Positions 8,318 through 61,156 of a DNA stretch of 63,139 nucleotides are shown here, piece by piece. Position numbers and translations under genes: made by a program. The DNA comes from Octopus sinensis (Eukaryota), in assembly GCF_006345805.1 (NCBI RefSeq), contig NW_021832001.1:1-63139 (forward strand), in the 5' to 3' direction. Every line of letters starts with the position of its first letter. The stretch's first letter is position 1. A model generated the notes under the pieces. That model had not been told where the DNA came from and made no database searches. It worked only from the letters and a program-made list of their open reading frames with translations.

Positions 8318-8720
8318 TATTTCAATCATACCTGGTTCATCTTTGCCTTTGAGAGTCCAAGAGTAGGGGAAATGTACAATACCGCTAGTACCGCAATGGA
8401 ATAAATTAACTACACTTCGCTCATAAACTGTGTGGCCTTGGAAAATAAGTATAATAACGAAAGCTGTAGATTGATAGAACCGCAGAACGTCATGCAGGAT
8501 GTTTTGAGCGTGGTGATAGCTCTACATTTCGAATTCAAATCTGGTTGAAGTCGAGTACTTTGATTGTCATCCTTTCGTGGATAATCAAAATAAGTGTCAT
8601 CGAAGTCGGTATAATCATGAAATAGCGATATCAAAGGAGTCAAATGTATCTAGGTTATTCGTATCATTTTTGTGAATCAAAAGCTATCAAAAATGTTCAG
8701 ACTGACATATAGTTTTGTTT

Positions 8721-14170: not shown

Positions 14171-16245
14171 CCTTTCTTTTCTGGCCACAAAGGCCGAACA
14201 CAAAAATATTTAGGGACAATACATAACAAGGTACCAGTGGGGTTTAAAACGGAAAACGCGTAAACAATAAAAAACAAAGAGTTAACAAAAATTTAGCAAA
14301 ATTCCCCAATGGGGGTGGGGTGGAGTTTCACTCAAGGTCAACCAGGGCCAACCAGGGCACGCCAGGTAGGCACCCATCTTCCCCTCAACTGCTCCGGTTA
14401 CAGACGAACATTCAGAGCCATTTTCATAACATTCACCCACTTTTCAACAAAATTACTGGGGAGGCATTACTTCCTCTCTACCCTCACATTCCTTTTCAAG
14501 TGGAATTTGAAAAAGTAGATGAGGGGTCGGCCAATGAGGAAAATGTCTGTCGTCAGTCCTTTCAGCCTCGTCCACCACACTACCACCTTCGCTATAGCCA
14601 CCAGACAGAGGAAAACTGCCTTTCCCTCCCAGCCAAAAGAAGGCGGCGGGGAGATCCTCACAATGGACTCGGATGATAAACGGATTCGTCATACACGTGA
14701 CAGCAGCTGTTCAACAAAGCTCCACAAGTTAGTAATGCACGGACACTGGACAAATGCATTCAGGACGGTTCCATCACCCTGCACTCATCTTGGAAAGGTC
14801 CGTCTGACAGCACTACCGTGTCTGTAGAGCTTTTCCCGAACCAGCAAAGCTGCCAGTAGTACTGAGAGGCCAGAGATTTCTGGAAGTTATCCATAGGCCC
14901 TGGACCGAAAGTCCTCCGGAAAGGACCAGTTAGTTGATCTCTCCCGACACCCAGAATTTTCCCGAGTACGGCCTCGCTCTTTCCCTTCACTAATTCCCTA
15001 TAGAACTCCATAGTGGAACTTCCACCAACCTCGTTGCCCAACTAGCAGAAAGATATGAGCGCTTGCCGACACTCCAGGTGCTAAGTGCCTTTTATTGGTC
15101 TACGCTTGACCTAGGACTGTAGCTCCATCAATGAGACGAGCTGTGGAAAGCCTTGTTTGACGAACGATAACCACACCTGCCCACCTTTAAGGAAACGCTG
15201 GAGATGTCACAGCTTCAGCGCATGTTTGCGCATCATTAGCCACGGCATGCCCAGTCCTCCACTGTTGACGAGCAGAACACGTCCCTTCAATAGAAAGTGG
15301 AAGAGCAAGTGGAGAAAGGGACGACGGTCAGACTTCAGTAGATGACGGAAGCGATGTATGCATTCGCCACCTCCGCTCGATCCTTCAGGGACAGCTTCCT
15401 CTCTGCCCACTTCTGGGTGAGACTGGCTACTTTGCTTGTCACCTCCCCCCAGTTCTTGTTCACCTGGAGGTCTGGGCTAAACCAGATCCCGAGCAATTTA
15501 ACCGGTCCTTCCGCCCAGCTCCCTAAAAAGCTGTCGGGTAGCATAGACTTACCTCTCTAGGTGCCGAGCTGCAGGAGCACCGACTTTTGGTTTATCTTTG
15601 CTCCTATCACCACTTCGTACTCCCTTAGTGCAGTGTCGACCACCTCGATTTCCGTGATGTCCGGCACTATTACGGTGACGTCATCCGCATAAGCCGATTC
15701 AAAACTACCGCATTTTAGATCACGCAGGATGCCCCTCAAAACATCCATATTCCACAGCAATGGCTTAAGAGCCAGTACGTACAGAAGGGGCGAGAGTGGG
15801 CATCCTTGACGGACCGAACGAGCAATACTAAGCGATTCTGATAGGTGGCTGGTTACTTTGACCACCGAATGGATGTCGTTGTACATTGCTGTGATCTAGC
15901 CTCTGAAAACGGGACCGAAACCTGCTGCCGCGAGAACAGCCTCCAAGTATTGGTGGTCGTCCCTATCCAAATTGATCAGGGCCTCACCCATGCCAAGTTC
16001 TTTACACACCCTCTCAATTATGTAGCGCGTGAGATGGAGGTTGTTGTGGATAGTTCTATTTGGAATAGCGCGTTTTTGCGTATCACCAACCAACTTATCG
16101 ATGACAAGCGCCAACCTCTTGGCTAACCCTTTGACCGAAATCTTATAATCTTCGTTCATCAGAGTTATAGGCCTAAAATTATTAATTTTGTCCCCCTTGT
16201 TCGGGTGTTTCCCCAACAGCACCACCACTCTACGGCTCACAGCGC
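14171..16245 (-). mobile_element. 5'-truncated Tx1/L1-clade LINE, degenerate RT and C-terminus
   Basis: Minus-strand ORF pieces FRPITLMNEDYKI, SVRQGCPLSPLLY, AYADDVTV, LLGIWF, with stops and frameshifts. The 3' end abuts (ATT)n. Confidence 0.9.
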
Positions 16246-16937: not shown

Positions 16938-19900
16938 GGTTCTACCTGAAAGGTGCCTGCCGGCATGGAGAGGAAGGTGCAGGCTGCCGCTTTGCACATC
17001 CGGGACCCTGCCACAGAAACCAACCACCGAAAGGAATGGGATGGACCACGCATCACCGGCCCCAAAACGGAGGTACGCAGATGTGGTGCGTACCACAAAC
17101 CACCAACATGTTGTTGAAAGGGCAGCTGCTGAGCAGGAATCTTTTTGTGCATGGCACAAAAGATTGTACAGCAGCTAACCTGCTCCATCAGGCTCAGGTC
17201 GCAGATGGAACTGCCCACGTTTCACAAGACCGCCACAGCAGATGGACCCAGGGTGGACACCACCGGCAACAGCATACACCTCACCTCGATGCTCCTACTG
17301 AACATCAGAGGACTACTAACACACAGTAACAGGACAAAAGTCCCGTTCCTGAGAGACTTTGTCGCATGCAATCAAGCCTTATGCATAGCACTCACAGAAA
17401 CGCATCTGAAACCGACATAGCAGATGCGGAATTACACCTACCACAGTATGTTGTACTACGGACCGACAGGAAAAAAGAAGTCATGGAGGAGTTGCTATGT
17501 ACATCCGTGGGGACCTCACACCCCAGGTCCTTTTGTCATACTCAAACTCGGTGTGTGACACACTAATTGTCACATAAGGCAACTTGATGTAGTTGTGTGT
17601 GGCTACATATCGCCCTCCAGATGCCCCAAGTCATATGGGCAAGTTTGAGGACTGCCTTTTAAAAATAAAGTTCTAACCACATTAGAACAACACATAAGTG
17701 TACTTCTCATGGGAGACTTCAAGCTACCGAATGTCAGATGGCCCGAGGGCCTTTCTCTCCCAGGAATGACAAGATGTGAACGAGGACAGGCGAGGTCCCT
17801 CCTGAACCTCACCAACACCCTGTACATGGAGCAAGTAATACTCCAACCAACCAGAGCGGGTACACACTGGATCTCTGCTTCACAAATAATATGGATCTCA
17901 TCCATAAGTGAAAGTGACAAGACACACCGACACTACTCTCGGATCACAACATGGTAGAGCTGACCATGTACGGCCAAAAGAGAGCACGGACATGCAGCCT
18001 ACAAGAACCCTCAGAATCTTTCCAGCTTGAACTTCAATAAGGCAAACTGGAAACAAATGAGAAAGAGATCCTCAAACAAAACTGGCCTGAATGTCTCTCC
18101 TCGCCGGACATCGACATTACTTACTTCAACAATTCATGTCTGTAATGCAAGCCATATGCTACAAATGTGTCCCAGAGAGAAAGGCCACTGTACACACAAG
18201 AACAATCCCCAGAGAGAGAAAAATTTTAATGAGACGGGGCGCACAAAAATCTCAAATCGCCTAAACAACAAATTGAAAGCAGTGAAAAGTCCCGCCTGAA
18301 AATAAAACTGTTGGAAATTGAAAATTGTCTGCAACTCTCCCATGAAAGGAAAGAGCAGACAAAGAAGCCTGGGCTATAGACAAATATAAAACTAACCCCA
18401 GAGCTTTCTACAGGTATGCCAAAGAAACAGCTACGGTGCACTGTAGGATAGGGCCACTCCTTGAAAAGGATGGCACACTCACAGGAAAACCAATGAGGGT
18501 AAGTGAAATACTGAATGAACAATTCAAGAGTGTTTTCACTCCACCCCTTGGGCATTTCCAAATCAGCAATCCAACTGACATTTTACCACTGCAGATATAG
18601 AATCAGAGGCGGCGACGTTAAATTACATCGATATAAAGGAAGACGATGTAATAAAGGCTATAGATGAAATGAAAATAGACTCAGCTATTGGCCCCGATGG
18701 ATTCCCGGCAATCCTCCTAAAAGTATGTAAGAGAGTCTTAGCAAGACCACTGCAGTTCCTCTTTCAGAGCTTCCTTGCAGCTGGCAAACTTCCAAGAAAA
18801 CTGAAGGAAGGTAAAATATGCCCTATTCATAAAGGAGGTAGCAGAGCGAGGCCAAGAACTACAGACCTATCTCTCTGACCTCACACATCAGCAGGTCATG
18901 GAACGAATAGTCAGAAGGAAACTAATCACCTTCCTTGAAGAAAATGACTTGCTGCCTGAACGCCCAACATGGTTTCCGACCAGGAAGAAGCTGCTTAACT
19001 CAGCTCCTGCAGCACACTATGACTGGGTGCTGAAACAACTGCTCAACCACTCAAATGTGGAAGTCATATATCTCGACTTCGCAAGGCCTTCGATAAAGTC
19101 GATCATGGAATGACGTGATTTTGTCACAACTGCGTGAGCTTGGCATAGTTGAAAACTAGGAGAATGGCTTCACGACTTTCTGAAGAATAGAAGTCAGGTG
19201 GTAGTAGCCAATGGGCCACTTCCATTAACACGCAAATAGTGAGCGGTGTTTCCACAGGGCACTGTTTTGGGACCACTACTGTTCATAATGGCCCTCTCAG
19301 ACATGCCCTCAGCCACGCGGAGAGCCACGATCACAAGTTATGCCGATGATACAAAGTTTCACAGGCAATACAGAACCCTGAAGACACTAGCACCTGCAAT
19401 GAAGCTGGACGAAATATACAAGTGGGGCTGAAAAGAATAGCATGCAGTTCAATGCTGAAAAGTTCAAGCTTTATACTATCAGCATGCAAAACTGAATGCA
19501 ATAACCCAAGGAATACACTGGACCGGAGGGATTGCAATCCCAGAGGCACAATCAGTGCGTGACCTGGGTATTCACATGAGTGATGACGCGACCTTCATGT
19601 ACTGTTGCTAAACTGACAATGAAATGCAGACGGCTGGCTGGATGGATTCTTAGAACCTTTAGAACAAGAGAACAAGAAACCATGATGGTCCTCTGGAGAC
19701 ACTTGTCCTAGTCACTTTGACTATTGCTCTCAGCTATGGTCACCATCCAGTGTCAAGTTGATCACAGAACTTGAGGCGATCCAACGAAGCTACACGAAAG
19801 AAATAGCCTCTATGCAGAATGTAAGCTACTGGGAAAGACTCAAGAGATTAAAATTATATTCCCTGGAGCGTAGGCGGGAAAAGATATGCCATAATATACA

Positions 19901-20338
19901 TCTGGAAGATCCTGGAGGGAAGTGTCCTGAACTTTGCATCGAGAGTTACGCAAACGCCAGAACTGGGCGCCACTGCGTGGTGCCTAGGACTCCAAACTTG
20001 CCATCAAGATGTAGGGACAAGATTCTGTGATAGCCTGGGCTTCCGAGGCCCACAGCTCTTCAATATCCTCCCGATGAACCTGAGAGACCTGCATGGGGTG
20101 GATACAGATGTCTTTAAAATGGAGCTGGATCTCTCTCCTGTCAGGTGTCCAGATGAACCAACTTCACGCAGGAGGGGCAGATGAGGGCAGCTGCATCGAA
20201 CTCTCTCTGCACCAAATAAATAGCAGTTGCTAGAAAGCCTCCATGAAGTGAAACCAAGTAGCAACACCAAATGGCGGTGCCCCAGCATGGCCACAGCTCA
20301 TAAGCTGAAACTGGAATCAATCAATCAATCAATCAATC
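16937..20338 (+). mobile_element. CR1/L2-group LINE: ORF1 remnant, APE endonuclease and RT, frameshifted; (AATC)n tail
   Basis: LLLNIRGL..ALTETHL, MGDFKLP, GPDGFP, YLDFA, PQGTVLGPLLF, SYADDTK, SYWERLKRLKLYSLERRR; flanked by (TA)n on both sides. Confidence 0.92.
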
Positions 20339-23693: not shown

Positions 23694-24955
23694 TCAGGCT
23701 GAGTAAAAAGTAAGCAACGTTTTGAACCAAGAAGAATTCGTACCGGAGTTCTGAATTATTTTTTTAAACATGTTTTTTGCAATTGTCTGATAATACAGAC
23801 ATAGACTTGCTTAAATGCATCGATAAATTAACATTGACATTTTTTTCACCCTTGTTACAATCATCTGAAATGGAACTGTCAAAGCACAATATTCGAGCAA
23901 TTTTGCTAATCAACTTCAAAAAAAGGACGTAAAGCAGCTGAAACTGCTCGCGATATCAACGAAACGTTTGATGAGGAAATGTCCAGTGAGTGGTCAGCTC
24001 GAAAATGGTTCAAACGATTTCTTAGTGGAGACCTGAGCCTTGAAGATCGTGATCGTAGTGGACGTCGACCTGTCATCGATGACGGTCAATTAAAGACCGT
24101 CATTGAGAAAGATCCACGTAAAACCACTCGAGAACTAGCAAAAGAATTTCAAGTTAGTCAGGAAACTGCCTGCAACCATTTGCTTGCAATCGGAAAATCA
24201 AAAGAGCTGGACAAATGGGTACCACACGTTTTGAGTGAAAATCAGAAAATGCGCAGATATGAAATTTGCTCGTCGCGTCTTATCCGTAACCAGACCGATC
24301 CATTTCTCGACAGTATTGTAACATGCAATGAAAAGTGGATTCTGTACAATAATAAAAAAAAAAAGTCTTCGAAGTGGTTGGACCAAAATGAAACACCGGA
24401 AACCTTCTCTAAACCCGAGCTCTTCAAAAAGAAGGATATAGTGACTGTTTGGTGTTGTACTGCTGGACTCATCCACTATAACTTCTTAAAACCCGGAATA
24501 ACCATTACAGCAAAAACATATTGTTGTGAAATTGCCAATATGAACGAAAAACTGCTACTCCTCCGTTCCGGACCGGTCAACAGAAGAGGGCCAAACATTT
24601 TCCATGACAATGCTCGATCACACGTTTCACTAATGACGTTCCAGAAGTTAAGGGAACTTGGCTACGAAGTCCTTCCCCACCCAGCTTATTCCCCAGACTA
24701 TCACTTTTTCTAGCAACTTGATGGTTTCCTGCTAGAGGAGGAGTTCTAAAATCAAACCTATGCTGAAAGTCCGTTCAAAGAGTTCATCAGCTCCAGAACT
24801 CCAAATTTTTATGTTACCAGAATAAACAAACTTGTAACACGTTGGAAAAAATGCGTTGATTGTAACGGTACTTACTTTGATGAATGAAATTTCCGCATTG
24901 CTGAAAAACTTGTGAATGATTTCATGTTTCAAACGTTGCTTACTGTATACTCGAC

Positions 24956-36263: not shown

Positions 36264-37334
36264 AGCGGCGAGCTGGCAGAAACGTTAGCACGCCGGGCGA
36301 AATGCGTAGCCGTATTTTGTCTGCCGCTACGTTCTGGGTTCAAATTCCGTCGAGGTCGACTTTGCTTTTCATCCTTTCGGGGTCGATTAAATAAGTACCA
36401 GCTACGCACTGGGGTCGATATAATCGACTTAATCCGTTTGTCTGTCCTTGTTTGTCCTCTCTGTGTTTAGCCCCTTGTGGGTAGTAAAGAAATAGGTATT
36501 TTGTCTGCCGCTACGTTCTGGGTTCAAATTCAGTCGAGGTCGACTTTGCCTTTCATCCTTTCGGGGTCGATTAAATAAGTACCAGTTACGCACTGGGGTC
36601 GATATAATCGACTTAATCCGTTTGTCTGTCCTTGTTTGTTCTCTCTGTGTTTAGCCCTTTGTGGGTAGTAAAGAAATAGGTATTTTGTCTGCCGCTACGT
36701 TCTGGGTTCAAATTCGGTCGAGGTCGACTTTGCCTTTCATCCTTTCGGGGTCGATAAATTAAGTACCAGTTACGCACTGGGGTCGATATAATCGACTTAA
36801 TCCGTTTGTCTGTCCTTGTTGGTCCTCTCTGTGTTTAGCCCCTTGTCTGCCGCTACGTTCTGGGTTCAAATTCGGTCGAGGTCGACTTTGCCTTTCATCC
36901 TTTCGGGGTCGATAAATTAAGTACCAGTTACGCACTGGGGTCGATATAATCGACTTAATCCGTTTGTCTGTCCTTGTTGTCCTCTCTGTGTTTAGCCCCT
37001 TGTCTGCCGCTACGTTCTGGTTCAAATTCGGTCGAGGTCGACTTTGCCTTTCATCCTTTCGGGGTCGATAAATTAAGTACCAGTTACGCACTGGGGTCGA
37101 TATAATCGACTTAATCCGTTTGTCTGTCCTTGTTGGTCCTCTCTGTGTTTAGCCCCTTGTCTGCCGCTACGTTCTGGGTTCAAATTCCGTCGAGGTCGAC
37201 TTTGCCTTTCATCCTTTCGGGGTCGATAAATTAAGTACCAGTTGCGCACTGGGGTCGATGTAATCGACTTAATCCCTTTGGCTATTCTTGTTTGTCCCCT
37301 CTACGTTTAGCCCCTTGTGGGCAATAAAGAAATA
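36264..37334 (+). mobile_element. SINE family C hexamer within one TSD
   Basis: One full head plus five headless units; 17-bp TSD aggagatataggtagat (36244-36260 and 37335-37351). Confidence 0.92.
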
Positions 37335-37627: not shown

Positions 37628-38761
37628 ATTTCATATTTCTTTATTGCCCAGACAAACAAGGACAGACAAAGGGATTAAGTCGATTACATCGACCCCAGTG
37701 CGTAACTGGTACTTAATTTATCGACCCCGAATGGATGAAAGACAAAGTCGACCTCGGCGGAATTTGAACTCAGAACAAAAAGACAGACGAAATACCTATT
37801 TCTTTACTACCCACAAGGGACTAAACACAGAGAAGACAAACAAGGACAGATAAATGGATTAAGTCGATTACATCGACCCCAGTGGGTAACTGGTACTTAA
37901 TTTATCGACCCCTAAAGGATGAAGGCAAAGTCGACCTCGGCGGAATTTGAACTCAGAACGGAAAGATAGACGAAATACCTATTTCTTTACTACTCACAGG
38001 GGGCTAAACACAGAGAGGACAAACAAGGGCAGATAAACGTATTAAGTCAATTACATCGACTCCAGTGCGTAACTGGTACTTAATTTATCGTCCCCGAAAG
38101 GATGAAGGCAAAGTCGACCTCGGCGGAATTTGAACTTGGAACGTAACGGCAGACAAAATACGTATTTCTTTACTACCCACAAGGGGCTAAACACAGAGAA
38201 GACAAACAAGGACAGATAAATGGATTAAGCCAATTACATCAACCCCAGTGCGTAACTGGTACTTAATTTATCGACCCCGAACGGATGAAAGGCAAAGTCG
38301 ACCACGGCGGAATTTGAACTCAGAACAAAAAGACAGACGAAATACCTATTTCTTTACTACTCACAAGGGGCTAAACACAGAGAAGACAAACAAGGACAGA
38401 TAAATGGATTAAGTCGATTACATCGACCCCAGTGCGTAACTGGTACTTAATTTATCGACCCCGAAAGGATGAAGGCAAAGTCGACCTCGGCGGAATTTGA
38501 ACTCAGAACGGAAAGACAGACGAAATACCTATTTCTTTACTACCCACAAGGGACTAAACACAGAGAAGACAAACAAGGACAGATAAACGGATTAAGTCGA
38601 TTACATCGACTCCAGTGCGTAACTGGTACTTAATTTATCGACCCCGAAAGGATGAAGGCAAAGTCGACCTCGGCGGAATTTGAACTCGGAAGGTAACGGC
38701 AGGCGAAATACGGCTACGCATTTCGCCCGGCGTGCTAACGTTTCTGCCAGCTCGCCGCCTT
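37628..38761 (-). mobile_element. SINE family C hexamer within one TSD
   Basis: Six ~183-bp units; 15-bp TSD atcaaaagtattctt (37613-37627 and 38762-38776). Confidence 0.92.
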
Positions 38762-38853: not shown

Positions 38854-39239
38854 AGAGGCGTAATGGCCCAATGGTTAGGGCAGCGGACTCGCGGTCGTAG
38901 GATCGCGGTTTCGATTCCCAGACCGGGCGTTGTGAGTGTTTATTGAGCGAAAACACCTAAAGCTCCACGAGGCTCCGGCAGGAGATGGTGGTGATCCCTG
39001 CTGTACTCTTTCACCACAACTTTCTCTCACTCTTACTTCCTGTTTCTGTTGTACCTGTATTTCAAAAGGGCCGGCCTTGTCACTCTTTGTGTCACGCTGA
39101 ATATCCTCCGAGAACTACGTTAAGGGTACACGTGTCTGTGGAGTGCTCAGCCACTTACACGTTAATTTCACGAGCAGGCTGTTCCGTTGATTCGGATCAA
39201 CCGGAACCCTCATCGTCGCAACCGACGGAGTGCTTTCCC
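38854..39239 (+). mobile_element. SINE family B, full length
   Basis: A and B boxes; TSD acataaaaaa. Confidence 0.92.
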
Positions 39240-39613
39240 ACATAAAAAAGAAAATATATTTAGGCTTTTTCTCTGCTGTTGCTGTTATTAATTTTGCTAA
39301 TTTTATTATTTCTGTTGTGTTTTATGTTGTGGCTCGAGATGTATTAAATCATCTCAGGATTCTAATTGCGGCGAACTGGTCTTCTAACCATAGAACAATT
39401 TATCTCTCATCTGGTTTACACTATGGCATAAGAGGCTCAGCGGAGATTAAGTAATGTTATCCCTACATTTTTTTCCCCTTAATTTTGGAAAGTGTGCACC
39501 AAATGTTCATTTTTTTCTGCGAGAAAGACAAAAAGTGGGGGAGTATGACAGAAGAAAGAAACGAGTAATGGTGTGACAGAAAGTGTGTGTGTGTGAGTGT
39601 GTATGTGTGTGTA

Positions 39614-47489: not shown

Positions 47490-48800
47490 TCAAAGAAAGC
47501 AGACGTGCAGTGGGGGTGTCAAAGGAATGTCAGAGGAAGCAGACAAATAGTGGAGTTGCTAAAGGAAGTAGAAATGCAGTGGAGTTGTTAAAGGAAACGG
47601 AAATGCAGTGGAGTTGCCAAAAGTAGCAGAAATTCCAAAGGAAGCTGAAATGCAGTGGAATTGCTAAAAATACCAGAAACGCAGTGGAGTCGCTAAAATA
47701 CCAGAAACGCAGTGGAGTTGCTAAAGGAAACAGAAATGCAGTGGAATTACTTACAGAAGTAGAAATGCAGTGGAGTTGCTAAAGGATGTAGAAGTGCAGT
47801 GAAGTTGTCAAAGGAAGCAGAAATGCAGTGGGGTTGCTAGAGGAAGCAGAAATGCAGTGGAGTTGCCAAAGGAAACAGAAATGCGGTGGAATTGCTAAAG
47901 GAAGCAGAAATGCAGTGGGTTTGTTAAAGGAAGCAGAAATGCAGTGGGTTTGCTAAAGGAAGCAGAAATGCAGTGGAGTAGCCAAAGGAGACAAAAATGC
48001 GGTGGAATTGCTAAAGGAAGCAGAAATGCAGTGGAGTTGTTAAAGGAAGCAGAAATGCAGTAGGGTTGCTAAAGGAAGCAGAAATGCAGTGGAGTTGTTA
48101 AAGGAAGCAGAAATGCAGTAGGGTTGCTAAAGGAAGCAGAAATGCTGTGGAGTTGCCAAAGGAGACAGAAATGCGGTGGAATTGCTAAAGGAAGCAGAAA
48201 TGCAGTGGAGTTGCTAAAGGAAGCAGAAATGCTGTGGAGTTGTTAAAGGAAGCAGAAATGCAGTGGAGTTGTTAAAGGAAGCAGAAATTCAGTAGGGTTG
48301 CTAAAGGAAGCAGAAATGCAGTGGAGTTGTTAAAGGAAGCAGAAATGCAGTGGAGTTGTTAAAGGAAGCAGAAATTCAGTAGGGTTGCTAAAGGAAGCAG
48401 AAATGCAGTGGGGTTGCTAAAGGAAGCAGAAATGCTGTGGAGTTGTTAAAGGAAGCAGAAATGCAGTGGAGTTGTTAAAGGAAGCAGAAATGCAGTAGGG
48501 TTGCTAAAGGAAGCAGAAATGCTGTGGAGTTGCCAAAGGAGACAGAAATGCGGTGGAATTGCTAAAGGAAGCAGAAATGCAGTGGAGTGTTAAAGGAAGC
48601 AGAAATGCAGTGGAGTTGCCAAAGGAGACAGAAATGTGGTGGAATTGCTAAAGGAAGCAGAAATGCAGTGGGGTTGTTAAAGGAAGCAGAAATGCAGTGG
48701 AGTTGCCAAAGGAGACAGAAATGTGGTGGAATTGCTAAAGGAAGCAGAAATGCAGTGGGGTTGTTAAAGGAAGCAGAAATGCAGTGGAATTCCTGAAGGA
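47490..48800. repeat. 29-bp tandem satellite, ~45 copies, consensus AAAGGAAGCAGAAATGCAGTGGAGTTGCT
   Basis: Head-to-tail units with no spacers; 87-bp higher-order repeat at the right end. Confidence 0.95.
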
Positions 48801-49990
48801 AACAGTGTTAAAAAATGAAAAAGTAGAAATCAACAGAGAAAGGTAGCAGAGATGCATTTGAGACTTTAAAAGGAAACAGAGATAAAGTGGAATTATCAAA
48901 AGGAAGCTAAATGTCAGTGGAAAAGTTAAAGGTAGGGAAATTTCAGAAAGTTCTAAAATGAGAAAGATAAAAAAAAAAAACAGAATGGAATTAGTTTTTG
49001 GAAAGTGAAGAAAAAGGACGAAAAAGACGAATGAAATAAGATTTGAGAAGAGACGTGAAAAAAAGCCCCCAAAAATGTATGAGAATTCGAAAGGTAAAAA
49101 AGGAAGAAGTGCAGCAAAATGGATGAGGACTTATGAGGAAATGAAGTTGAAGAGGAAGAATAAAGTTGATGATGATGAGGATGATGATGATGATGATGAG
49201 AAGGAGGAGGAGGAGGAGGAAGGGGAGGTGGAGGAGGCGGAGTGTGGCGGCGGCGGCGGTGGTGGCGTGATAATGATGATGATGATGAGGAGGAGGAGGT
49301 GGTGGTGGAGGAATGTGGTGACGGCGGTGGTGGTGATGATGATGATAAGGAGGAAGACGACAGTTATGATGATGATGATGATGATGTTAGTGGTGATGGT
49401 CATGATGGTGATGGGCAGTGTTGGTAAATATGATGGTTAGAGTGTAGTGATGCAGAGTGTAGTAGTAGTGCAAGTGATGGTGGAGTTGGTGGTGATAATG
49501 ATGAAGATGATGACGATGACGACGACGACGATAATGATCGTGGGAGAAAGCCAGAAAAGAAGACGACTTTACCTTTCATCCTTTCTGAGTCGCTAAAATA
49601 GGTACCAGTTGAATACTGGAGTCAATGTAATCGACTCATCCCTTTCGCCGAAATTGCTGGCTTTGTGTCAAAATTTAAAACCATTATTATTTCCTCTTTA
49701 TCACAGGTTTTTTTGGAGCTCCTGGAGTCTTGCATGCGTATCGGGCTTACTACCTGCAGCCTACGGTACCATGTTATTAGTTCTTTTCAGCTATCTAATA
49801 CTTTCCTGATTATTCTGGCCGTGCCAAGGAGGCAAACCGTTTGTAACAGTTCTACTGGACACTCTATTCCTGTTTCCTTTATATTCCTCTTGATGCCTTC
49901 TGATACTGTTCCCAAGGACCCACCAAAAATGGCGCTTCATTTTCCATAGCCGGGCTATTTCGTACTTAAGAGGGTTGTATCTATCTTTCC

Positions 49991-50228
49991 TATTTCTTTA
50001 CTACCCACAAGGGGCTAAACACAGAGGGGGACAAACAAGGACAGACAAACGGATTAAGTCGATTACATCGACCTCCAGTGCATTACTGGTACTTAATTTA
50101 TCGACCCCGAAAGGGATGAAAGGCAAAGTCGACCTTGGCGGGATTTGAACTCAGAACATAGCGGCAGACGAAATACGGCTACGCATTTCACCCGGCGTGC
50201 TAACGTTTCTGCCAGCTCGCCGCCTTTT
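49991..50228 (-). mobile_element. SINE family C monomer inside the R4/Dong endonuclease region
   Basis: TSD tatctatctttcc (49978-49990 and 50229-50241). Confidence 0.93.
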
Positions 50229-50565
50229 TATCTATCTTTCCGCCTTCCTTTTTGACTATTCGTGGGTCAAAGGGGCATGCAACGTCTACTATATAGCATA
50301 TGTGGTGCACCTTGTCCATCACCACTAAATCCGGCCTGTTATGCTCTAGCACCTGATCTGTTTGGATTGGGAAATCCCAGAGGATTTTGCTAGACTCCGA
50401 CTCTACCACTCACTGCGGTTTGTGCTCATACCAGACCTTGTCTCTCTCTAGCCCCCACTTTTCACAGTTTCCAATGTAGCACTTTCGCTACCTGGTCGTG
50501 TCGCCACGAGTTGTAGCGGTTCTGGCCAAGTCTAGGGCATTCATTCATTAGATGAGCAATGGTTT

Positions 50566-51486
50566 TATAACGGGTGTTGATGAAATATCATGATTATTGG
50601 TGTTGCAGATGTGCAAGATGAAAGAACAGTGATCGAAGTGGTAAACAAATATTTAGTACCGTTACTTTGTATATAGCCAAACCACGACGAATTGATAATT
50701 CGTAAAGCATGCGAGGTAAAGAGAGATATCGTTGATTTTCCTTGTATAGTTTGTGTTTGTGTTCTCGTCATTGTGTAGTTGTAAATCACAGATAGAGATA
50801 GGATAATGTTGTAGAGAAGAGAAAGTGAGATAGTGAAAGTGAGGGTGGTGGGACGAAACAACTGCTTCGTTAGTGAGTTACCATAGTTGTCTCTCTGTGC
50901 CTTTTCCTTCAGAGATGGCGTTCGTTTAGCCGGTCAACCGACACGGTTCTCACTTACTGACTTTGGCTTACGGTGTTCTTGTATTTATAACTATGCAAAA
51001 CTAGCTAAAAAATGGTTATATTGCAGAGAACAAAAATATTCTCCACTGCATACAAGAGGTTAGAAGGGTCAAGTGGCAAAGACATAAATCGGCTTGGCAA
51101 AGCCATATGTTAAATTTAACGGATCTTTTCTTTTTGAAGGCCAGATTTTCCTAGTTAACTAAACAATTTGAAACTTCGTATACTGGTAGAATGTGTCAAA
51201 AGAAAACATTATTGTAAACAAAATGGAAAACAAAATTGTAATTCGTAACTTAAACATAGTTTAATTTTAAGAATTGTTTACAATAATGTTTTCTTTTGAC
51301 ACATTCTACCAGTATACGAAGTTTCAAATTGTTTAGTTAACTAGGAAAATCTGGCCTTCAAAATGAAAAGATCCAATTTAACTACTGTCAACCATTGTTT
51401 CTCTGTGAGAAAATGCTGTTGAAATATTATGGGAAATTTGCCTATTCAAGTTCGAATCTACTTTATGCCTAAATGAAGTCACTACA
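50566..51486. mobile_element. Probable solo LTR inserted in the R4/Dong zinc knuckle
   Basis: Clean ~920-bp interruption with a 4-bp direct repeat GTTT. Ends TATAA...CTACA, i.e. TG..CA with one change. Confidence 0.5.
51121..51374. mobile_element. Palindromic MITE with GG termini and 8-bp TSD (Merlin-like, tentative)
   Basis: 101-bp inverted arms with one mismatch; TSD aatttaac (51113-51120 and 51375-51382). Confidence 0.88.
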
Positions 51487-52303
51487 GTTTCATCCACTCT
51501 ATTGCAGATGCGACACAGCGGAGAGACACTTGCTTATTCCTAAGATTCCAGTTTGTGACCAAAGCTTGGTCTTGTGCTGCCAGTATAGTGCTCTCGATCT
51601 CATTTTTTAGGGTTCCTTTCATTAGCCAATCCATGGAATTGATTATGTAGTCCCTTCTTGCGTAATTCTTCTTCATGTCCTTTTTGCACTTCTTCCCCCT
51701 CCTTTTTTTCTCTGCTTTCAATACTCTCTCGTTCCTAATTGTCACTAGCAAGGTTTCCTTATTTTGGGTCAGGTATCTCATTAAACGTACTCAGTCTTCC
51801 CCACTTATCAATCTCCTTCCTCCATTTGCTCTCTTCATGTATAGGCGACCACGTGGATGATGGGCTCCATGCATTGTTAGGAGCTTTATTGACTTCTTGT
51901 CCATCTCCTTTAGCTCCTCCTCTGTCCACTTCGGGATTCCAGCGCCATACGGAACTACTGCGATTGCGTGCGAGTTTATTGCCGAAATTATGTTTCTGAC
52001 ATTCAGCTTTGAAGCCGATATTTTTCTCACTCGCGGCTGGTACTCTCTTTTTGTCTTTTCCTTTCATATAGCGGTGTTTGATTCCATCTGTCTCAAGTAT
52101 TCTCTGGTATTTATAGCTGGATTGAGGTTGGATTGCTTTCATCATTTCACCACTAGGCAAACACATGCCCTCTGTTCTGGCAAGCCTTTCCTCGTCTCAT
52201 CACCACCGAGGCACATTCTGAGACCCCCAAACTCCATCTTAATATCATTTGAAAAAAATCCGCACAGACTGGACCAGGCTGTCCAGTTCTGCTTCAGTTT
52301 TTG

Positions 52304-54952: not shown

Positions 54953-55121
54953 TAATACAACATCAGTCTGAATTCCTGAAACTAATACAATGCAGGTAAA
55001 TGCAGGTAAATATATACGTATCTACTTTACATATAGCCGAGGAAATTGAAATCTTCGATTGTTCTAAGTCAGCAAAACCATTGGTCCGAACGATTGTCAA
55101 TCCATTACCTTAAATTAATGT

Positions 55122-55506
55122 GGAATGGAAGCACTCCGTCGGTTACGACGACGAGGGTTCCGGTTGATCCGAATGAACGGAACAGCCTGCTCGTGAAATT
55201 AACGTGTAAGTGGCTGAGCACTCCACAGACACGTGTACCCTTAATGTAGTTCTCGGGGATATTCAGCGTGACACAGAGAGTGACAAGGCCGGCCCTTTGA
55301 AATACAGGTACAACAGAAACAGAAGTAAGAGTGAGAGAAGTTGTGGTGAAAGAGTACAGCAGGGATCACCACCATCCCCTGCCGGAGCCTCGTGGAGCTT
55401 GAGGCGTTTCGCTCAATAAACACTCACAACGCCCGGTCTGGGAATCGAAACCGCGATCCTATGACCGCGAGTCCGCTGCCCTAACCACTGGGCCATTGCG
55501 CCTCCT
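55122..55506 (-). mobile_element. SINE family B, full length
   Basis: TSD aattaatgt. Confidence 0.92.
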
Positions 55507-56497
55507 GAATTAATGTACGTGTAAACCAACTCATAACCACTTTCTTCAGAGCTCTAGCATTGTCCATGGAAACGAGCGATAGTGTACTATAAGGACATGC
55601 AGTTCAATTAATGAATTCAAAACATTATCGATAATGATCCGGAAAAATGATAATCATCACCAAAGAACTTCAAGTTTCGGAGTGGACTATCAGAACTGCG
55701 GTGCACAAGGGCATTCGGTAGAAATCGTGCGAACTGAAGAGAGGTCAGTTAATGTATGAAAAGACACAGGAAAGCCGTTTGATCAGTATCAAGCAGTTAC
55801 TTAACAAGTCTAATATCCTTTAAGAACATGACATGCTTTGATTCTTCTCCGATGTGGAAAACTTCGACCAAGACCAAAGGTCATATAGGAGAAATGACTG
55901 ATGGTAATGTTTAGTTTATCCTGATGTCCCTATGTAGGGAATTAATAATAATGATACACCCCTCCCACGTGACGAATGGAAAGTAAAGAGAAGTACATGG
56001 AGTACGGGAGAACGTAGGAGGAGGTCTGAGACAGTCGTGACTTTACTGGTTTTACTAAGTATACTGTATACTGAAGTGGGTGTTATAATAATCCGACATT
56101 TTAAGGATTACAACAGTAAGTCTCAAGCAATTGTAATGGTTGTACTAATACAGGATCATAGACACATGCACAAGGCAAGATATCTTAAGGCTTCTAACGT
56201 GACTCTCTACTAGTCGTTCATATAATAATCCTGAATCATGTTATGTTATGACAAAGTCGTGTATTTACTGGTAGTGACGACACATTATAAGCGAAAAAAC
56301 ATGGAAATATGTCGGTAAGCAGAAGTTAATTAAATCTAAAAAGGTAGCACATGGTGGTACGGGAAAAAGATTATATTTTTCGGTGAATTCGTATGTAGTG
56401 CAATATTTCAAGAACAAACGAAAAAGACAAAGATGTATGTATCAAAAGAATCACTTGGCACAGAGTGGATTGAAATATAGATTGAAATGTGTGGAAA

Positions 56498-57806
56498 TAT
56501 ACCCGAGGAAGAACATATGGCATTGTGGAGGTGCGTTTCACGACGGAGGATGAAGCGATTAAGAATTCAACAGAAGCAATACGAACAGAGGAATGGGTGT
56601 TTTTGCCGTCCTACTGTGGCAAACGTGTTGCCAGAGTAAGAGTTGGCAGAGTGCCACCAGAGATAAAAGAAACATGGCTGATGGCAGCCATCATGTACAA
56701 TATGGAGGAGGAGACCAAGATTCTCAAGGCGACAAGAAACAAAAAGGGTGAACTATTAAGGATATGGCATAGAAATGGCCATTCAAGCTAGTATAGATGG
56801 CCTCAATAGAATCGCGGAAGAAATAGTTCTGCTTCAGGACGTAAGGCTGCGAGTGGTGTTGGAGGGTAGGCCGCCTATATGCTATGTATGTGGAGAAAAG
56901 GGCCACATAAAGAGAGAACAACAGATGGAACAGACGGAGAAGCAAGAGAGTGCAGACCAAGAGGTACAAGTCGAGGTAAAGGAGACAAGAATGGAAGAAG
57001 GATTTACGGTAGTAAAAAAAAGAAAGAGAAGTGATAGAGTAAGCTCTCCGCCAGAAGGGGCAGAAAAAGAAGAAAGAAAATGTAGAGAAAGAAATTATGA
57101 AGGAAGTCAGAAGGAAAGAATATAAAATGGTGGTTGACAAGGAGATCGAAAGAAACTTGAAAAGGAGCTCGAAGAGGAGTTGCAGAAGGAGGAGACAGCA
57201 GCAAAAACATTGATTGTACGAGTAGAGGAATAGGATTCAGGAGAACAATTATACGAGGGTGAAATAGAGAGATTATTTAGAGTGGAAAGAGAAAAGGTAC
57301 CAGCAGTGGAGCAGGAAAAGAGAAAGCAAGTAAGAAAACCCCCAAAATATCGATGGAATTTTGTGACATATGCGAAAAACAAGGAAACAGAACGGAAAAT
57401 AAAGAAATTTAAGTTTATCATAAGGGTGAAGCTTCCCACAGACGTGTATTCAGAAAATGTGAAGGCCATTGTGATCGACAGGGAGAAATACAACAGGTTG
57501 AGAGATATGTGTGGAGAGGGAATTGATCCGCCAGGAGTAGCGGTGGATTTCGATGAATTGCCACCGGTAGTGGAACTGAAAGATCTTGAACCTTTTATGA
57601 AATACTAAAAAAGGGAAAAAGTAAATAAAATTCTTTATCGGAAAAAAAGTTTAAAAAAAAGTAAAATGGGACTGCATGAGGAGTGGGGCCCATGCAGCCA
57701 TTTCATTTTCCTTATATAACATCTTCATTTTCATTCGTTTTATGTTTTTTGTCCCTACTGTAATGTTCGGTCTGTGTTATGGCCGTAGTGCCAAATAAAG
57801 AAAAGA
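56498..57806 (+). mobile_element. ORF1-only (HAL1-like) non-LTR element, copy 1, 5'-truncated and frameshifted
   Basis: Gag-like ORF with CYVCGEKGH knuckle and FTVVKKRKR, stop at ~57607, short UTR, Tx1-like 3' module, no ORF2. Confidence 0.7.
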
Positions 57807-57829
57807 GTACGTTGTAAGCGGTGAGACAT

Positions 57830-59600
57830 ATTTGCATCAATTGGAGTTAATTTTGTCGTGTTTTCTCGATTGCTGTTAGACGTAAGTCACTTTGTTAAAT
57901 ATTTGTTGAAGGTCTCCCCTCGTGGGTGTACCCAAGATTATTGATTGTAACTGTTGAAATTGCTGTTCTTGTTATTGTTGAATTGTTGTTCTTTTTCCCA
58001 TTGCGGGAAAGATGGAGAAAGTGCCAGTAGGAGGCCACAGTTATGCGGCAGCAACTGGTAGAGAAATGGAGGTTGAAGCTTTGGAGGTCCGCGAAGTGAA
58101 AGTTGAGCCGAAGGAGATGAAAGAATGTGAGAAATTATTGAAAAGGGAGGGAAACACGTTGAGACTAACGCCACCTGAGGAACTCACAAGTAGTATAACC
58201 AAGAGAATAGTGATTTTTAAAACACTGAAGGTGTCAAGTAGGAAGATCAAAATAGCAACAACTGAGGCTATTGAGAATTGTTTGAAGGATATTAAGAAAT
58301 TCACAACGTTCATCACACGTGGAAGGAGGTATGGAAAAGTGGAGGTGCGTTTCGCGATGGAGGACGAAGTGGTTAAGCACTCCACGGAAGCCATAAGAAC
58401 GGAAGAATGGGTACTTTTGCCGACGTACTATGGCAAGCGTGTTGCCAGGGTGAGAGTTGGCAAAGTACCCCCAGAGATAAAGGAAACATGGCTGATGGCG
58501 GCCATAATATTTGACATGAAGGGAGATGCCAAGATACTCAAGGCAACGAAAACCAAAAGGTTGAATTATTGGAGGTATGGCATAGAGATGGCCATACAAG
58601 CGAGTTTGGAAGACCTCAACAGAATTGCAGAAGAAATAGTTCTGCACGAGGATATAAGGCTAAGAGTGGTTGGTGGTGGTGGGTAGGCCTCTCATATGCT
58701 ACTTGTGTGGAGAAAAAGGGCCATATGAAGGCGACGTGCCCCCAGAAAGAAAATGAACAACAGATGGAACAGACTGTGGCGCAGGAGAGTGTAGACTAAG
58801 TGGTACACTTCGATGTAAAGGAGGCAAGAACAGAGGAGGAATTCACGGTGGTCAAAAAGAGAAAGAGAAGTGAAAGAGTAAGCTCTCTGCCAGAGAGGCA
58901 GAAACAGAAAAAAGAAGTGGTTAAGGAGATGGCGAAAGAGGTTGTGAAGGAAGTCAGAAGAGAGGAAGGGGAGAAGATGGTTGATAAGGAGATTGAAAAG
59001 GAGCTTGAAGAGGAGCTCGAGGAGGGGTTTCAGAAGGCGGAGACAGCAGCAAGGACACTGGTTATACCAGTGGAGGAAAATAATTTAGGCGAACAACTGT
59101 ATGAGGGTGAAATGGCGAAACTATTCAGAGTGGAGGAGGAAAAAGAAAAAGTACCAGGAGTGGCGCAAGAAAAGGAAAAACAAGCAAGGAAGGCGAAAAA
59201 ATACCGATGGAATTTGGTGACATACACTAAAAATAAAGAAACTGAACGGAAAATAATGAAATTTAAGTCCATTATAAGGGTTAAGTTGTCCACAGATGTG
59301 TATTCGGAGAACGTGAGGGCCATTGTGGTCGACAAGGAGAGGTACAACAGGCCGAAAAATATGTGTGGAAGAGGCATTGATACGGCATTGATAGTTGCGG
59401 TGGAATTTGATGAATTGCTACCAGTGGTTGAATTGAAAGATCTTGAACCTTTCATGAGATATTAAAAAAGGAAAAAAAGTAAAATCGCTTTATGTAAGAA
59501 AAAAAAAAGTAAAATTGATTTATTTTAAAAAAGAAAACGATGATAAAGGAAAAAAACAAAGGAATAATGAACGATTGGAAACGAGTGCGAGGAATATTCA
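57830..59600 (+). mobile_element. ORF1-only (HAL1-like) element, copy 2 (ORF 58012-59465, disrupted)
   Basis: N-terminal SYAAA; CYLCGEK/GHMKATC knuckle at 58697-58739 with a 1-nt frameshift; same C-terminus ELKDLEPFM(K/R)Y* as copy 1. Confidence 0.7.
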
Positions 59601-59619
59601 TGCAGTATATGGGGATCGA

Positions 59620-60998
59620 ACAATAAGCGTAAGTTAGTGCCAACGGTGGTTCCAGAAATTCCGAGCCGGAAACTAGAGCCTAGAAGACGAGCCTCGTCCT
59701 GGAAGATCTGTAGAGCTCGACGAGAACATCCTGCAAACCCTGCTGGAATAAAATCCCCAGGTAACTATTGAGGAACCAGCAAAGGAGCTTGGATTTGGTC
59801 ATTCAACCATTCATCGAAACATGCGTGCTATCGGAAAAGTCAGCAGATTGGGTCAATGGGTTTCTCACAAACTTTCCGAGTCTAATTGGATGGAAGCACT
59901 CCGTCGGTTACGACGATGAGGGTTCCGGTTGATCCGAATCAACGGAACAGCCTGCTCGTGAAATTAACGTGTAAGTGGCTGAGCACTCCACAGACACGTG
60001 TACCCTTAGCGCAGTTCTTGGGGATATTCAGCGTGACACAGAGAGTGACAAGGCCGGCCCTTTGAAATACAGGTACAACAGAAACAGGAAGTAAGAGTGA
60101 GAGAATGTTGTGGTGAAAGAGTACAGCAGGGATCACCACCATCTCCTGCCGGAGTCTCGTGGAGCTTTAGGTGTTTTCGCTCAATTAACACTCACAACGC
60201 CCGGTCTGGGAATCGAAACCGCGATCCTACGACCGCGAGTCCGCTGCCCTAACCACTGGGCCATTGCGCCTCCACTCCGAGTCTAATTACACGCAGAGTG
60301 AATGTGTGTTCTTTGGTGTCACGTCTCACAAATGAACCTTTTCTGGACCGAATAGTAGTGACTGGTGATGAGAAATGAGTTCTCTATAAAATGCCAAGCG
60401 CCGAAGACAGTGGGTAGGGAAAGGAGAAACACTGGCACCTCAGGCTAAAGAACATAAGGTGTTGTTATCTGTTTGGTGGGATATGAAAGGTTTAGTCCAC
60501 TTTGAACTTTTAAACCCAAACCAAACGGTAACAAAGGAGATCTACTGCGATCATCTTGAACGGCTTAAGTCAGCGTTAGAAGGAAAAGGACCATCTTTGC
60601 TTTCAATACGAAAGGTGTTCTTCTATCAGGATAATGCTCGGCCACATACAGCGAGGATGACATTCCAAAGGCTGAAGCAGTTTGAATGGGAAACGATGCC
60701 CCACACAGCATATTCGCCGGACATTGCCCCATCTGATTATCATTTAGTCCGCAGTCTTCAAAATCATTTGAACAGAAAAAAAAATGAATTCTTAGATGAC
60801 GTCAGAACAGTAGTAGAGGAGTACTCTTCGTTATAGACAAGTGAATTTTGGAAGAGGAGGCCTTGCAAGTCTAGCAATTAGATAGAAGAGTATTGAAGAA
60901 AATGAAGAAGAGTATATTTTAGATTAAAAAAGAACTTTGTTTATCTTAATTTTGAAACATAAAGGAAAAACTGCATTTTTTTATGGGACGACGCAATA
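59620..60998 (+). mobile_element. 5'-truncated mariner transposon, transposase pseudogene
   Basis: QRWFQKFRAGN*SLEDEPRPGR, WVSHKL, VTGDEK*, QDNARPH, YSPDIAPSDYHL; TIR-like right end gcatttttttatgggacgacgcaata. Confidence 0.9.
59888..60275 (-). mobile_element. SINE family B inserted in the mariner
   Basis: TSD tccgagtctaatt (59875-59887 and 60276-60288). Confidence 0.93.
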
Positions 60999-61156
60999 TA
61001 CATACATACATACATACATATACATACACTCACACATACATACAAACATGCATATATATATTTATGTTTGTGTGTGTCTCTCTCTATATATACATACACA
61101 CATATATTTACATATATATATTGATAGATAGATACCATATGTGTATATTATATATA

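Follow-up and report, generated by a model that had tools for sequence, protein, structure and literature searches.

Why do two related retroelement relics, each looking like an ORF1 without its ORF2, lie one behind the other in octopus DNA, and how could they have spread? The preliminary description of the window (the whole 63,139-nucleotide stretch of Octopus sinensis DNA studied here) took them for a HAL1-like lineage under protein-level selection that inserts next to its relatives. We favour, at a probability of roughly 0.55, the following reading: copy 1 is a decayed LINE ORF1 with a short 3′ UTR, a LINE-type tail and no ORF2; copy 2 is a diverged relative, likely of the same build; and the two would have been mobilised in trans, separately, by a probably L1/Tx1-type LINE that likely favours related ends. 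The features concerned are:

14173..16240, minus strand: broken LINE ORF2 relic, 5′-truncated, running from the RT to the C-terminus; stop at 14400-14398, 3′ UTR of ~225 nt
56498..57608, plus strand: copy 1 ORF1 relic, 5′-truncated, with the end of RRM1, RRM2, an incomplete CCHC, a charged linker and the C-terminal domain
57609..57665, plus strand: A-rich start of the copy 1 3′ UTR (61% A), homologous to the post-stop sequence of copy 2
57658..57709, plus strand: predicted long hairpin in the copy 1 3′ UTR, weakly supported
57740..57804, plus strand: copy 1 3′ tail, with TTGTCCCTA (57749-57757), TGTGTT, a stem-loop, AATAAA and GAAAA
57810..58011, plus strand: probable 5′ UTR of copy 2, abutting the copy 1 tail, its boundary set from this single copy
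58012..59465, plus strand: ORF1 relic of copy 2, start codon present, with two predicted RRMs, an interrupted CCHC, a charged linker and the C-terminal domain
59466..59583, plus strand: A-rich stretch 3′ of the copy 2 stop (58% A), its first ~50 nt resembling the copy 1 UTR, with no terminal tail
59584..60999, plus strand: mariner relic without left TIR and transposase N-terminus, with a right TIR-like end at ~60980-60999
~59888-60275: SINE-like repeat interrupting the mariner relic, with a 13-bp TSD

Copy 1 and copy 2 are same-strand ORF1-like homologues placed head-to-tail, as first described: BLASTN aligns them at 77% over 1213 columns, and 890 of 1109 aligned columns are identical in a global alignment. 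The conserved C-terminal motif quoted in that description occurs in both, together with the terminal stop codon (57606-57608 and 59463-59465), and profile matches cover 56498-56614, 56639-56918 and 57360-57599 of copy 1. A profile search in all six frames returned no third ORF1 copy in the window. While the homology of these gag-like sequences stands, the reading frame is damaged in each. Copy 1, which is 5′-truncated at ~56498, shifts frame near 56736, 57055 and 57149 and is interrupted by stops at 56757 and 57231; in copy 2 the frame shifts near 58667 and 58713, and a stop interrupts it at 58797. The CCHC knuckle reported for both is present yet intact in neither, since a net 21-nt deletion removed its last Cys in copy 1 and frameshifts interrupt it in copy 2. 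The truncation point of copy 1 abuts unrelated sequence: the upstream flank (55506-56497) holds neither a third copy nor the missing 5′ part, and four pieces of it gave no Pfam match. The probable 5′ UTR of copy 2 has short low-complexity matches only elsewhere in the window, and Rfam and ARAGORN matched nothing anywhere in it.

Its domains assign the protein to the Type I LINE ORF1s: a pair of predicted RRMs is followed by a CCHC, a charged linker and, at the C-terminus, a conserved domain. The RRMs fall at residues ~55-142 and ~140-224 of copy 2; their tandem model (pLDDT 89) finds IMP3 RRM12 in Foldseek at E 3e-5 and superposes on the La RRM with Z 9.4 and rmsd 2.3 over 82 aligned residues. 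Pfam zf-CCHC is matched on copy 1 at E 3.5e-4, just at the cut-off, and the top matches of a PDB sequence search with alignment A2 are all of knuckle type. Type I ORF1 is defined by RRM and CCHC and found in Tx1-type elements, though not exclusive to Tx1, according to PMC5203782. Transposase_22 gave no match at E<=1 in pieces of the window, and the Atlas clusters DUF4780 and PRE_C2HC were reached at 0.86 only. The structure prediction called for on the C-terminal domain did yield a model (pLDDT 69). The domain has no Pfam family, its model no Foldseek match at E<=0.001, and its top Atlas score of 0.80 is uninformative. Its best structural match is to ferredoxin-like folds (Z 6.4, rmsd 3.0, 69 aligned), a common arrangement with no bearing on function or novelty.

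The two copies are not recent duplicates. Their differences fall 50, 46 and 115 times on codon positions 1, 2 and 3 (354 gap-free codons), in agreement with the third-position excess noticed earlier; this bias, a dS of 0.5-0.8 and 80% identity rule out a recent tandem duplication. The dN/dS between them, 0.17-0.31 across four methods, is well away from the neutral value of ~1, in line with the proposed protein-level selection: NG86 gives 0.169 (bootstrap 0.11-0.24) and LWL85 0.245 (0.18-0.34), while neutral simulations, 500 runs each, never fell below 0.39 and 0.46, respectively. The source lineages of copy 1 and copy 2 diverged under purifying selection at the protein level. This selection could date from when both ancestors were autonomous, as dN/dS is blind to whether it acted before or after the loss of ORF2.

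Past its stop, copy 1 reaches its tail in ~196 nt, in which the longest open frame has 47 codons and no ORF2 remnant was found. Over the 400 nt past each stop, no open frame exceeds 47 codons for copy 1 or 66 for copy 2. The A-rich sequences after the two stops are homologous (57610-57667 against 59466-59515, 74.6% over 59 columns, E 0.005). Copy 2 continues for 118 A-rich nt and then meets the headless mariner, its terminal tail gone. Because the 3′ end of copy 2 and the left end of the mariner are both missing, copy 1 alone demonstrably lacks ORF2: of the A-rich UTR said to replace ORF2 in each copy, the A-richness holds for both and the replacement just for copy 1.

The mariner was said to cut copy 2. 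It does adjoin it and is recognised as Transposase_1 at E 2e-20, but the similarity begins at 59584, inside the transposase, and a search of the whole window allowing 5 mismatches in 20 turned up no left TIR. With its left end missing the mariner is not a clean insertion, and a clean insertion into copy 2 is ruled out. Also rejected is the idea that the pair landed within a single, intact mariner, given the missing left TIR and an upstream flank unlike the mariner pieces of the window.

The tail of copy 1 carries a 4-bp TGGC/GCCA stem with a 6-nt loop (57780-57793), followed by AATAAA at 57794-57799. Copy 1 provides the single complete ORF1-to-tail junction in the data. By folding energy, the terminal hairpins do not stand out from shuffled sequence (equalled by 17-29 of 200 shuffles in four tails and by 93 of 200 in a fifth), whole-UTR folding gives z of -0.98 and +1.06, and the hairpin at 57658..57709 (-18.6 kcal/mol, z -1.96) is equalled by 9 of 200 shuffles.

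The last ~65 nt of the LINE relic UTR match the copy 1 tail, the rest of that UTR being unlike. In a comparison of the final 70 nt of each, designed after the likeness had been spotted by eye, the score of 48 was reached by none of 5000 dinucleotide shuffles (maximum 39). The match is reciprocal: for the copy 1 tail, the LINE relic end is the best non-self match among 12,612 search windows (52, next 45), and from the LINE relic end (14173-14240, minus strand) the copy 1 tail comes out best (44, next 38). Compared over whole UTRs, the score is reached by 1 of 5000 shuffles. The Tx1-like tail ascribed to copy 1 is supported as a LINE-type, probably L1/Tx1-type, tail. The relic itself is matched by RVT_1 at E 7.7e-5 and 1.1e-7; one half of its RT is closest to L1 ORF2p (E 2e-4), and the other matches R2 and L1 both weakly. 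It represents, as far as sequence can tell, the kind of autonomous partner proposed for copy 1. The helper LINE is probably of L1/Tx1 type, the lean towards L1 coming from the one RT half. Recent activity is reported for 421 L1-Tx1 insertions. Since copy 1 has no enzyme gene and a tail like that of an RT-bearing element, it likely used the enzyme of a helper. A related tail is also present on 15 SINE copies. At one stem position the LINE and copy 1 have G-C where the SINEs have C-G, with a covariation score reached in 4 of 500 shuffles; both-sided change is seen in this one of four stem pairs only, a count matched by 157 of 500 shuffles. Altogether, copy 1 is very probably an ORF1-only element with a LINE-derived tail.

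Is it one of a family? The named relatives of its ORF1 are Octopus bimaculoides gene models. In all there are 176 matches at E<=1e-3, with C-terminal domains down to ~30% identity. Fifteen matches include the C-terminal domain, and nine of these end within 5 residues of the complete domain. Four of the fifteen extend beyond a C-terminal domain that is partial or internal, three of them into another ORF1 (P0010, P0118, P0128) and one into a host RGS domain. With P0002, P0074 and P0008, six gene models contain ORF1-ORF1 joins, bearing in mind that such joins may span long introns and that an ORF1 query and 50% clustering favour these chimeras. The parts so joined have diverged from each other (31% in P0010, 44% in P0002; the halves of P0074 are seen by profile, with no pairwise alignment). 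Seven non-colinear models (P0006, P0007, P0051, P0055, P0107, P0111, P0151), read as proteins with repeated knuckles, were left aside. A tree of the C-terminal domain resolved little (1 of 15 inner branches starred), and nothing here rests on it.

The best surviving competitor derives both copies from autonomous L1/Tx1 elements of the usual kind: one deletion or template jump removed ORF2 from copy 1, which never multiplied in that form; copy 2 lost it in the deletion at the mariner end; and the clustering reflects a target preference of the autonomous family. The pair would then be ordinary repeat debris. We regard this as possible, on the unlikely side. Internal deletion is described as a route to non-autonomous LINEs (PMC4494074), purifying selection is expected in autonomous lineages anyway, the downstream part of copy 2 is missing, and the copy 1 UTR is about as long as that of the LINE relic. 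A one-off deletion sits less well with the A-rich post-stop sequence common to both copies, with read-through in P0010 and P0017, beyond this same stop, into K-rich sequence, and with the lack of any ORF2 remnant before the copy 1 tail. Moreover, EN or RT was reached by none of the four run-on models, and no EN or RT Pfam domain at E<=1e-4 was found in the 150 scanned of 154 matches (P0006, P0007, P0055 and P0092 left out); gene models normally end at the ORF1 stop, so this absence is weak evidence. Equally weak is the lack of longer or fused forms: 0 of 1858 candidates with the N-terminal piece against 393-2000-aa proteins, and 0 of 7999 scored with alignment A1 against 708-2020-aa proteins. 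On balance we lean towards the ORF1-only elements being a replicating family. As to the HAL1-like lineage first proposed, the structure is borne out by copy 1; a self-sustaining lineage does not follow, as the selection may predate ORF2 loss, and HAL1 serves as an analogy.

Such a family may be real and the pair still be made of chance neighbours, or of an untargeted insertion into an A-rich tail in a repeat-dense genome. We find this doubtful. The locus was chosen for being a pair, and with L1-Tx1 elements occupying 56.3 Mb in O. vulgaris (80 families, about 2% of the genome; PMC13282606) some copies are bound to be neighbours by accident. Nor did a target motif emerge: the common target supposed for the 5′ and 3′ flanks did not appear as shared sequence, nor was there a TSD for copy 1 or for the pair, copy 2 showing A-rich 7-mers only, in a search where two SINEs taken as control gave clear TSDs. 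Against chance, joins to recognisable sequence are ORF1-ORF1 in six models and lead to other domains in two (P0005, P0014), despite that modest genome share, and 10 of the 15 tail-bearing SINE copies lie in arrays, with one and the same motif downstream of each. For the claim that these elements insert beside relatives, same-strand joining in six other gene models speaks in favour and the flanks give no sign of sequence targeting; we put an insertion preference behind the stacking at about even odds.

Finally, an ORF1 might have been domesticated as a host gene with two RRMs and a zinc knuckle, whose family grew by tandem duplication and later decayed, its AATAAA being a simple polyadenylation signal. 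Domestication could account for paralogues in head-to-tail order that show purifying selection, for the pairs that recur in gene models and for the lack of a TSD, but is very improbable given a tail common to an RT-bearing LINE and SINEs, the truncation of copy 1 against unrelated sequence, the damage to both copies, and matches that are mostly short fragments, some joined to a transposase or RGS gene, as dispersed repeats would give.

Returning to trans-mobilised ORF1-only elements, their cycle can be sketched as follows. An element coding, as copy 1 does, for the Type I ORF1 protein only would have its RNA bound and packaged by the two predicted RRMs and the zinc knuckle. The TGTGTT-stem-loop-A-rich tail, common to the LINE and the SINE family, may be recognised by helper ORF2p, leading to target-primed reverse transcription, which when incomplete would produce the 5′ truncation of copy 1. 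Purifying selection acted on ORF1 in the lineages leading to both copies, and successive insertions at or beside a resident relative could build head-to-tail stacks of different subfamilies. A later deletion would have taken the copy 2 tail together with the mariner left end.

A broader picture can be offered tentatively: octopus may harbour an old, diversified ORF1-only L1/Tx1 parasite clade that shares a 3′ hairpin 'address' with a LINE and a SINE and inserts at its members' ends into interstitial, HeT-A-like stacks, a second and non-telomeric case linking ORF2 loss with arrays. ORF1-only LINEs are rare and, having no RT, would be missed by RT-based annotation. If true, stacking of L1/Tx1-type ORF1-only elements off telomeres tests the payoff of keeping ORF1 and borrowing ORF2 in a shared target niche. 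The tail match between LINE, ORF1-only element and SINE points to a candidate driver of an abundant octopus SINE and would give the L1 group an animal case of stringent 3′-end recognition. TTAGGG and TTAGG are telomeric repeat motifs, and the 63-kb window contains neither in tandem.

How does the octopus element compare with known systems? PMC5786205 names three groups of ORF1-only LINEs, from the Jockey, L1 and CR1 clades. We found no description of ORF1-only Tx1 elements from cephalopods in the literature; Repbase, Dfam and the O. vulgaris repeat library lay outside this search, and the family is possibly catalogued there. HAL1 of mammals is a non-autonomous member of the L1 group that encodes ORF1p only and needs ORF2p in trans (PMC5753468, PMC5786205). 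The octopus element would resemble it in being ORF1-only, L1-type and dependent on a proposed helper ORF2p. It differs in its Type I ORF1 (two predicted RRMs, CCHC and C-terminal domain), whereas HAL1 derives from mammalian L1, with a Type II ORF1 (coiled coil, single RRM, CTD; Transposase_22), so 'HAL1-like' holds as analogy only. Its 3′ end also differs, being a short stem-loop tail common to a LINE and SINEs; mammalian L1 recognises poly(A) (PMC3747384). Ag-Sponge, likewise ORF1-only and non-autonomous, derives from the CR1 clade and has a different ORF1 (PMC5786205).

HeT-A and other Drosophila telomeric elements of the Jockey clade are ORF1-only, lie head-to-tail with different families and use the ORF2 of another family (PMC13534243), much as proposed here. 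The octopus element is probably L1/Tx1 rather than Jockey, forms a pair rather than a long array, has a short 3′ UTR and lies in a window free of tandem telomeric repeats. The same 2026 study reports repeated ORF2 loss in telomeric arrays, but Jockey elements away from telomeres apparently do not show it. Tx1-clade LINEs (Tx1, Keno, Kibi, Koshi, Tx1-Mar) share the Type I ORF1, and their preferred targets are repeats, including other transposons; target sites of the Tx1 clade and SINEU may show a TSD, a truncation or no change, and tandem SINEU-3 copies come from sequential insertion (PMC4494074). Those LINEs carry an ORF2, which copy 1 does not. The octopus element is best read as HAL1-like in strategy without being HAL1: a non-autonomous, ORF1-only element of L1/Tx1 type, prone to stacking.

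The two ORF1 relics lie in repeat-rich animal DNA (131 tandem-repeat rows), where Rfam and tRNA searches of the window gave no match. Self-comparison retrieves them as the single homologous ORF1 pair (56501-57667 against 58315-59515, 77% over 1213 columns), and profiles built from relatives, run in every frame, found no third ORF1 copy in the window. The features concerned are:

56498-57608 (+), copy 1, ORF1 relic
58012-59465 (+), copy 2, ORF1 relic
14173-16240 (-), RT-bearing LINE ORF2 relic (RVT_1 match), 5'-truncated and broken, 3' UTR complete
7505-8333 (-), 13540-13570 (-), 22151, 32222, 36312-37332 (+), 37650-38711 (-), 49993-50023 (-), SINE-like family with 15 tail matches
23910-24713 (+), second mariner-type relic, its transposase 33-37% identical to that of the mariner at 59584
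55120-55505, 59888-60275, with matches at 5890, 10240, 33128, 38855-39246 and 46050, young ~390-bp repeat, 95-97% identical
47637-48805, 29-bp minisatellite, ~40 copies, 85% matches

At ~56498, unrelated sequence gives way sharply to copy 1; copy 2 has its start codon at 58012. Both are broken. In copy 1 the frame shifts three times and is stopped twice, and a net loss of 21 nt took the last knuckle cysteine; in copy 2 the frame shifts twice around the knuckle and meets one stop. The CCHC knuckle ascribed to these gag-like ORFs in the preliminary description is therefore present, but intact in neither. Immediately upstream of copy 1, 55940-56497 is not ORF1 and has no other match in the window. 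The broken frame at 55600-55935 (+) resembles, by eye, a piece of a Tc1/mariner-type transposase; two short pieces of it had no Pfam match, and it did not match the other mariners of the window.

Over 354 gap-free codons, the copies share 261 identical residues and differ at 50, 46 and 115 first, second and third codon positions, respectively. Their dN/dS is 0.169 (NG86), 0.245 (LWL85), 0.312 (YN00) or 0.186 (ML), with a minimum in the RRM block (0.11-0.17) and a maximum in the linker (0.27-0.69). Two sets of 500 neutral simulations, matched to the number and type of observed changes, gave means of 0.68 and 0.80, with no run under 0.39 and 0.46, respectively. The third-position excess and low dN/dS rule out a recent duplication and indicate that the copies derive from separately evolving coding lineages; on both points, the tandem duplication and the protein-level selection, the preliminary description was right.

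For the origin of the pair we favour, with a probability of roughly 0.55 for the joint claim, an ORF1-only, non-autonomous element copied by a helper through a shared tail and landing beside its relatives. It would encode its own RNA-binding protein, ORF1; the ORF2p of a helper LINE would recognise the shared tail and copy the element; and each new insertion would land beside resident relatives. The alternatives weighed below overlap partly with this reading.

The modelled N-terminal 224 residues of copy 2 (mean pLDDT 89, 72-row alignment) form two alpha/beta domains. Tandem-RRM proteins are the best of 31 Foldseek matches at E<=0.001 (IMP3 RRM12, E 3e-5), domain 1 aligns with the La RRM (Z 9.4, rmsd 2.3, 82 aligned), and the CCHC knuckle lies C-terminal to the two predicted RRMs. 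RRM plus CCHC constitutes the Type I ORF1 present in Tx1-type elements, mammalian L1 being Type II (PMC5203782). The C-terminal domain is kept across subfamilies at identities down to ~30%. Its model is middling (pLDDT 69), has no Foldseek match at E<=0.001 and resembles ferredoxin-like folds (best Z 6.4) only at the level of a common arrangement. At a guess, it might be a third domain for nucleic-acid binding, or one for assembly.

Past its stop at 57608, copy 1 has no frame above 47 codons within 400 nt. It runs through an A-rich stretch, then a weakly supported hairpin and T-rich sequence, into the tail, which terminates AATAAAGAAAA at ~57804; copy 1 is ORF1-only, with no ORF2 between stop and tail. 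The first ~50 nt past the copy 2 stop match the copy 1 UTR (74.6% over 59 columns). Because its terminal tail is not present, copy 2 is only likely to be ORF1-only, so the proposed label is secure for the first copy alone. Mariner similarity begins at 59584, already within the transposase, and no left TIR occurs in the window; contrary to the preliminary description, the mariner does not plainly cut copy 2. Most simply, we infer, one deletion took both the copy 2 tail and the mariner left end.

The five relatives of the ORF with an assigned species are gene models of Octopus bimaculoides (33-70% identity), which makes an octopus the likely host. A search with one related protein, P0003, gave 176 proteins at E<=0.001; the best 150 of 176, with an earlier search using the ORF, make a set of 154, and a Pfam scan of 150 of these found no EN or RT domain (E<=1e-4), in models that usually stop at the ORF1 stop. 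The C-terminal domain is carried by 15 relatives among the matches listed. Nine of them stop no more than 5 residues from a complete domain, and two stop within the domain itself; in the other four, the run-on models, a partial or internal domain leads on, to another ORF1 in three cases (P0010, P0118, P0128) and to a host RGS domain in the fourth. P0010, whose second C-terminal domain also terminates the protein, is counted as run-on. That both copies are autonomous relics whose ORF2 was lost in a one-off event is conceivable but rather doubtful; the purifying-selection signal is compatible with lineages either with or without ORF2 at that time.

For the non-autonomous element we favour, the tail points to a helper. 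The last ~65 nt of the RT relic and the copy 1 tail are reciprocal best non-self matches in the window (52 against 45 for the next among 12,612 windows; reciprocally, 44 against 38). The score of a 70-nt tail comparison was attained in 0/5000 shuffles and that of the whole UTRs in 1/5000, comparisons designed after the likeness was noticed by eye. A related tail occurs in 15 SINE-like copies, and LINE, copy 1 and SINE tails share TGTGTT, a 4-bp stem, a loop ending GT and an A-rich end. The stem covariation score was attained in 4/500 shuffles, with two-sided change in only one of four pairs, and tail hairpins were no more stable than shuffles. A shared 3' tail is an accepted sign of a non-autonomous element borrowing a LINE enzyme (PMC3747384, PMC4494074). 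L1 ORF2p is the sole match of one RT half among significant PDB rows, and the other half weakly matches R2 and L1; by these matches the relic is probably L1/Tx1-type and, its RT leaning to L1, a candidate type of helper. Among other LINE pieces, the ORF list holds a long broken one at 17133-20184 (+) with endonuclease- and RT-like fragments; broken ORF fragments at 50200-52200 (-) resemble, by eye, a LINE of R2/R4 type that has a restriction-like endonuclease.

Neither copy 1 nor the pair showed a TSD; two control SINEs gave clear ones. Since Tx1-driven insertions may leave duplication, truncation or nothing (PMC4494074), this is neutral on targeting. Tandem copies can result from sequential insertion (PMC4494074). 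Among gene models, six join two ORF1s and two join ORF1 to other recognisable domains (P0005, P0014); these counts take in only recognised partners, come from models whose introns can be long, and are biased towards chimeras by the ORF1 query. L1-Tx1 occupies 56.3 Mb of the O. vulgaris genome (PMC13282606 supplement), or ~2% (56.3 Mb / 2.8 Gb), which together with the six joins against two suggests that ORF1-ORF1 joins reflect real clustering. Joined parts are diverged (31% within P0010, 44% within P0002); besides the three run-on models, the six comprise P0002 and P0074, in which N-terminal or middle parts recur, and P0008, which is 36% identical to P0015 in its first half and 90% in its second. 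No fused ORF1 forms were found among longer proteins, in searches weak as evidence. P0014 (ORF1 piece plus host RGS domain) and P0005 (ORF1 piece plus ISXO2-like transposase) are probably annotation chimeras. An untargeted pairing at this locus, within a real ORF1-only family, we consider unlikely.

Ten of the 15 SINE tails have the same downstream motif, in ~183-bp head-to-tail arrays that could reflect the same stacking behaviour as the ORF1 pair or simple tandem amplification; the family is a candidate SINE partner for the L1/Tx1-type LINE and may target itself. The ~390-bp repeat has seven near-full copies in the window, with clear TSDs at both copies checked; one copy interrupts the mariner. 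Two short open frames at 4766-5358, of ordinary non-repetitive composition, may be host exons or chance. A domesticated tandem gene family, selected at the protein level and now broken in both copies, is very improbable.

A comparable head-to-tail arrangement is that of Drosophila telomeric elements, which have lost ORF2 repeatedly (PMC13534243); unlike that setting, the window has no telomeric repeats. In the papers searched we found no description of ORF1-only Tx1-type elements in cephalopods. Three ORF1-only groups have been named, HAL1, HeT-A and Ag-Sponge (PMC5786205; HAL1 also in PMC5753468), and the present element would share their way of working. The earlier term HAL1-like is apt in that sense but not as an identity: with a Type I ORF1 and a non-mammalian host, the element is not HAL1, and it probably belongs to the Tx1 clade.
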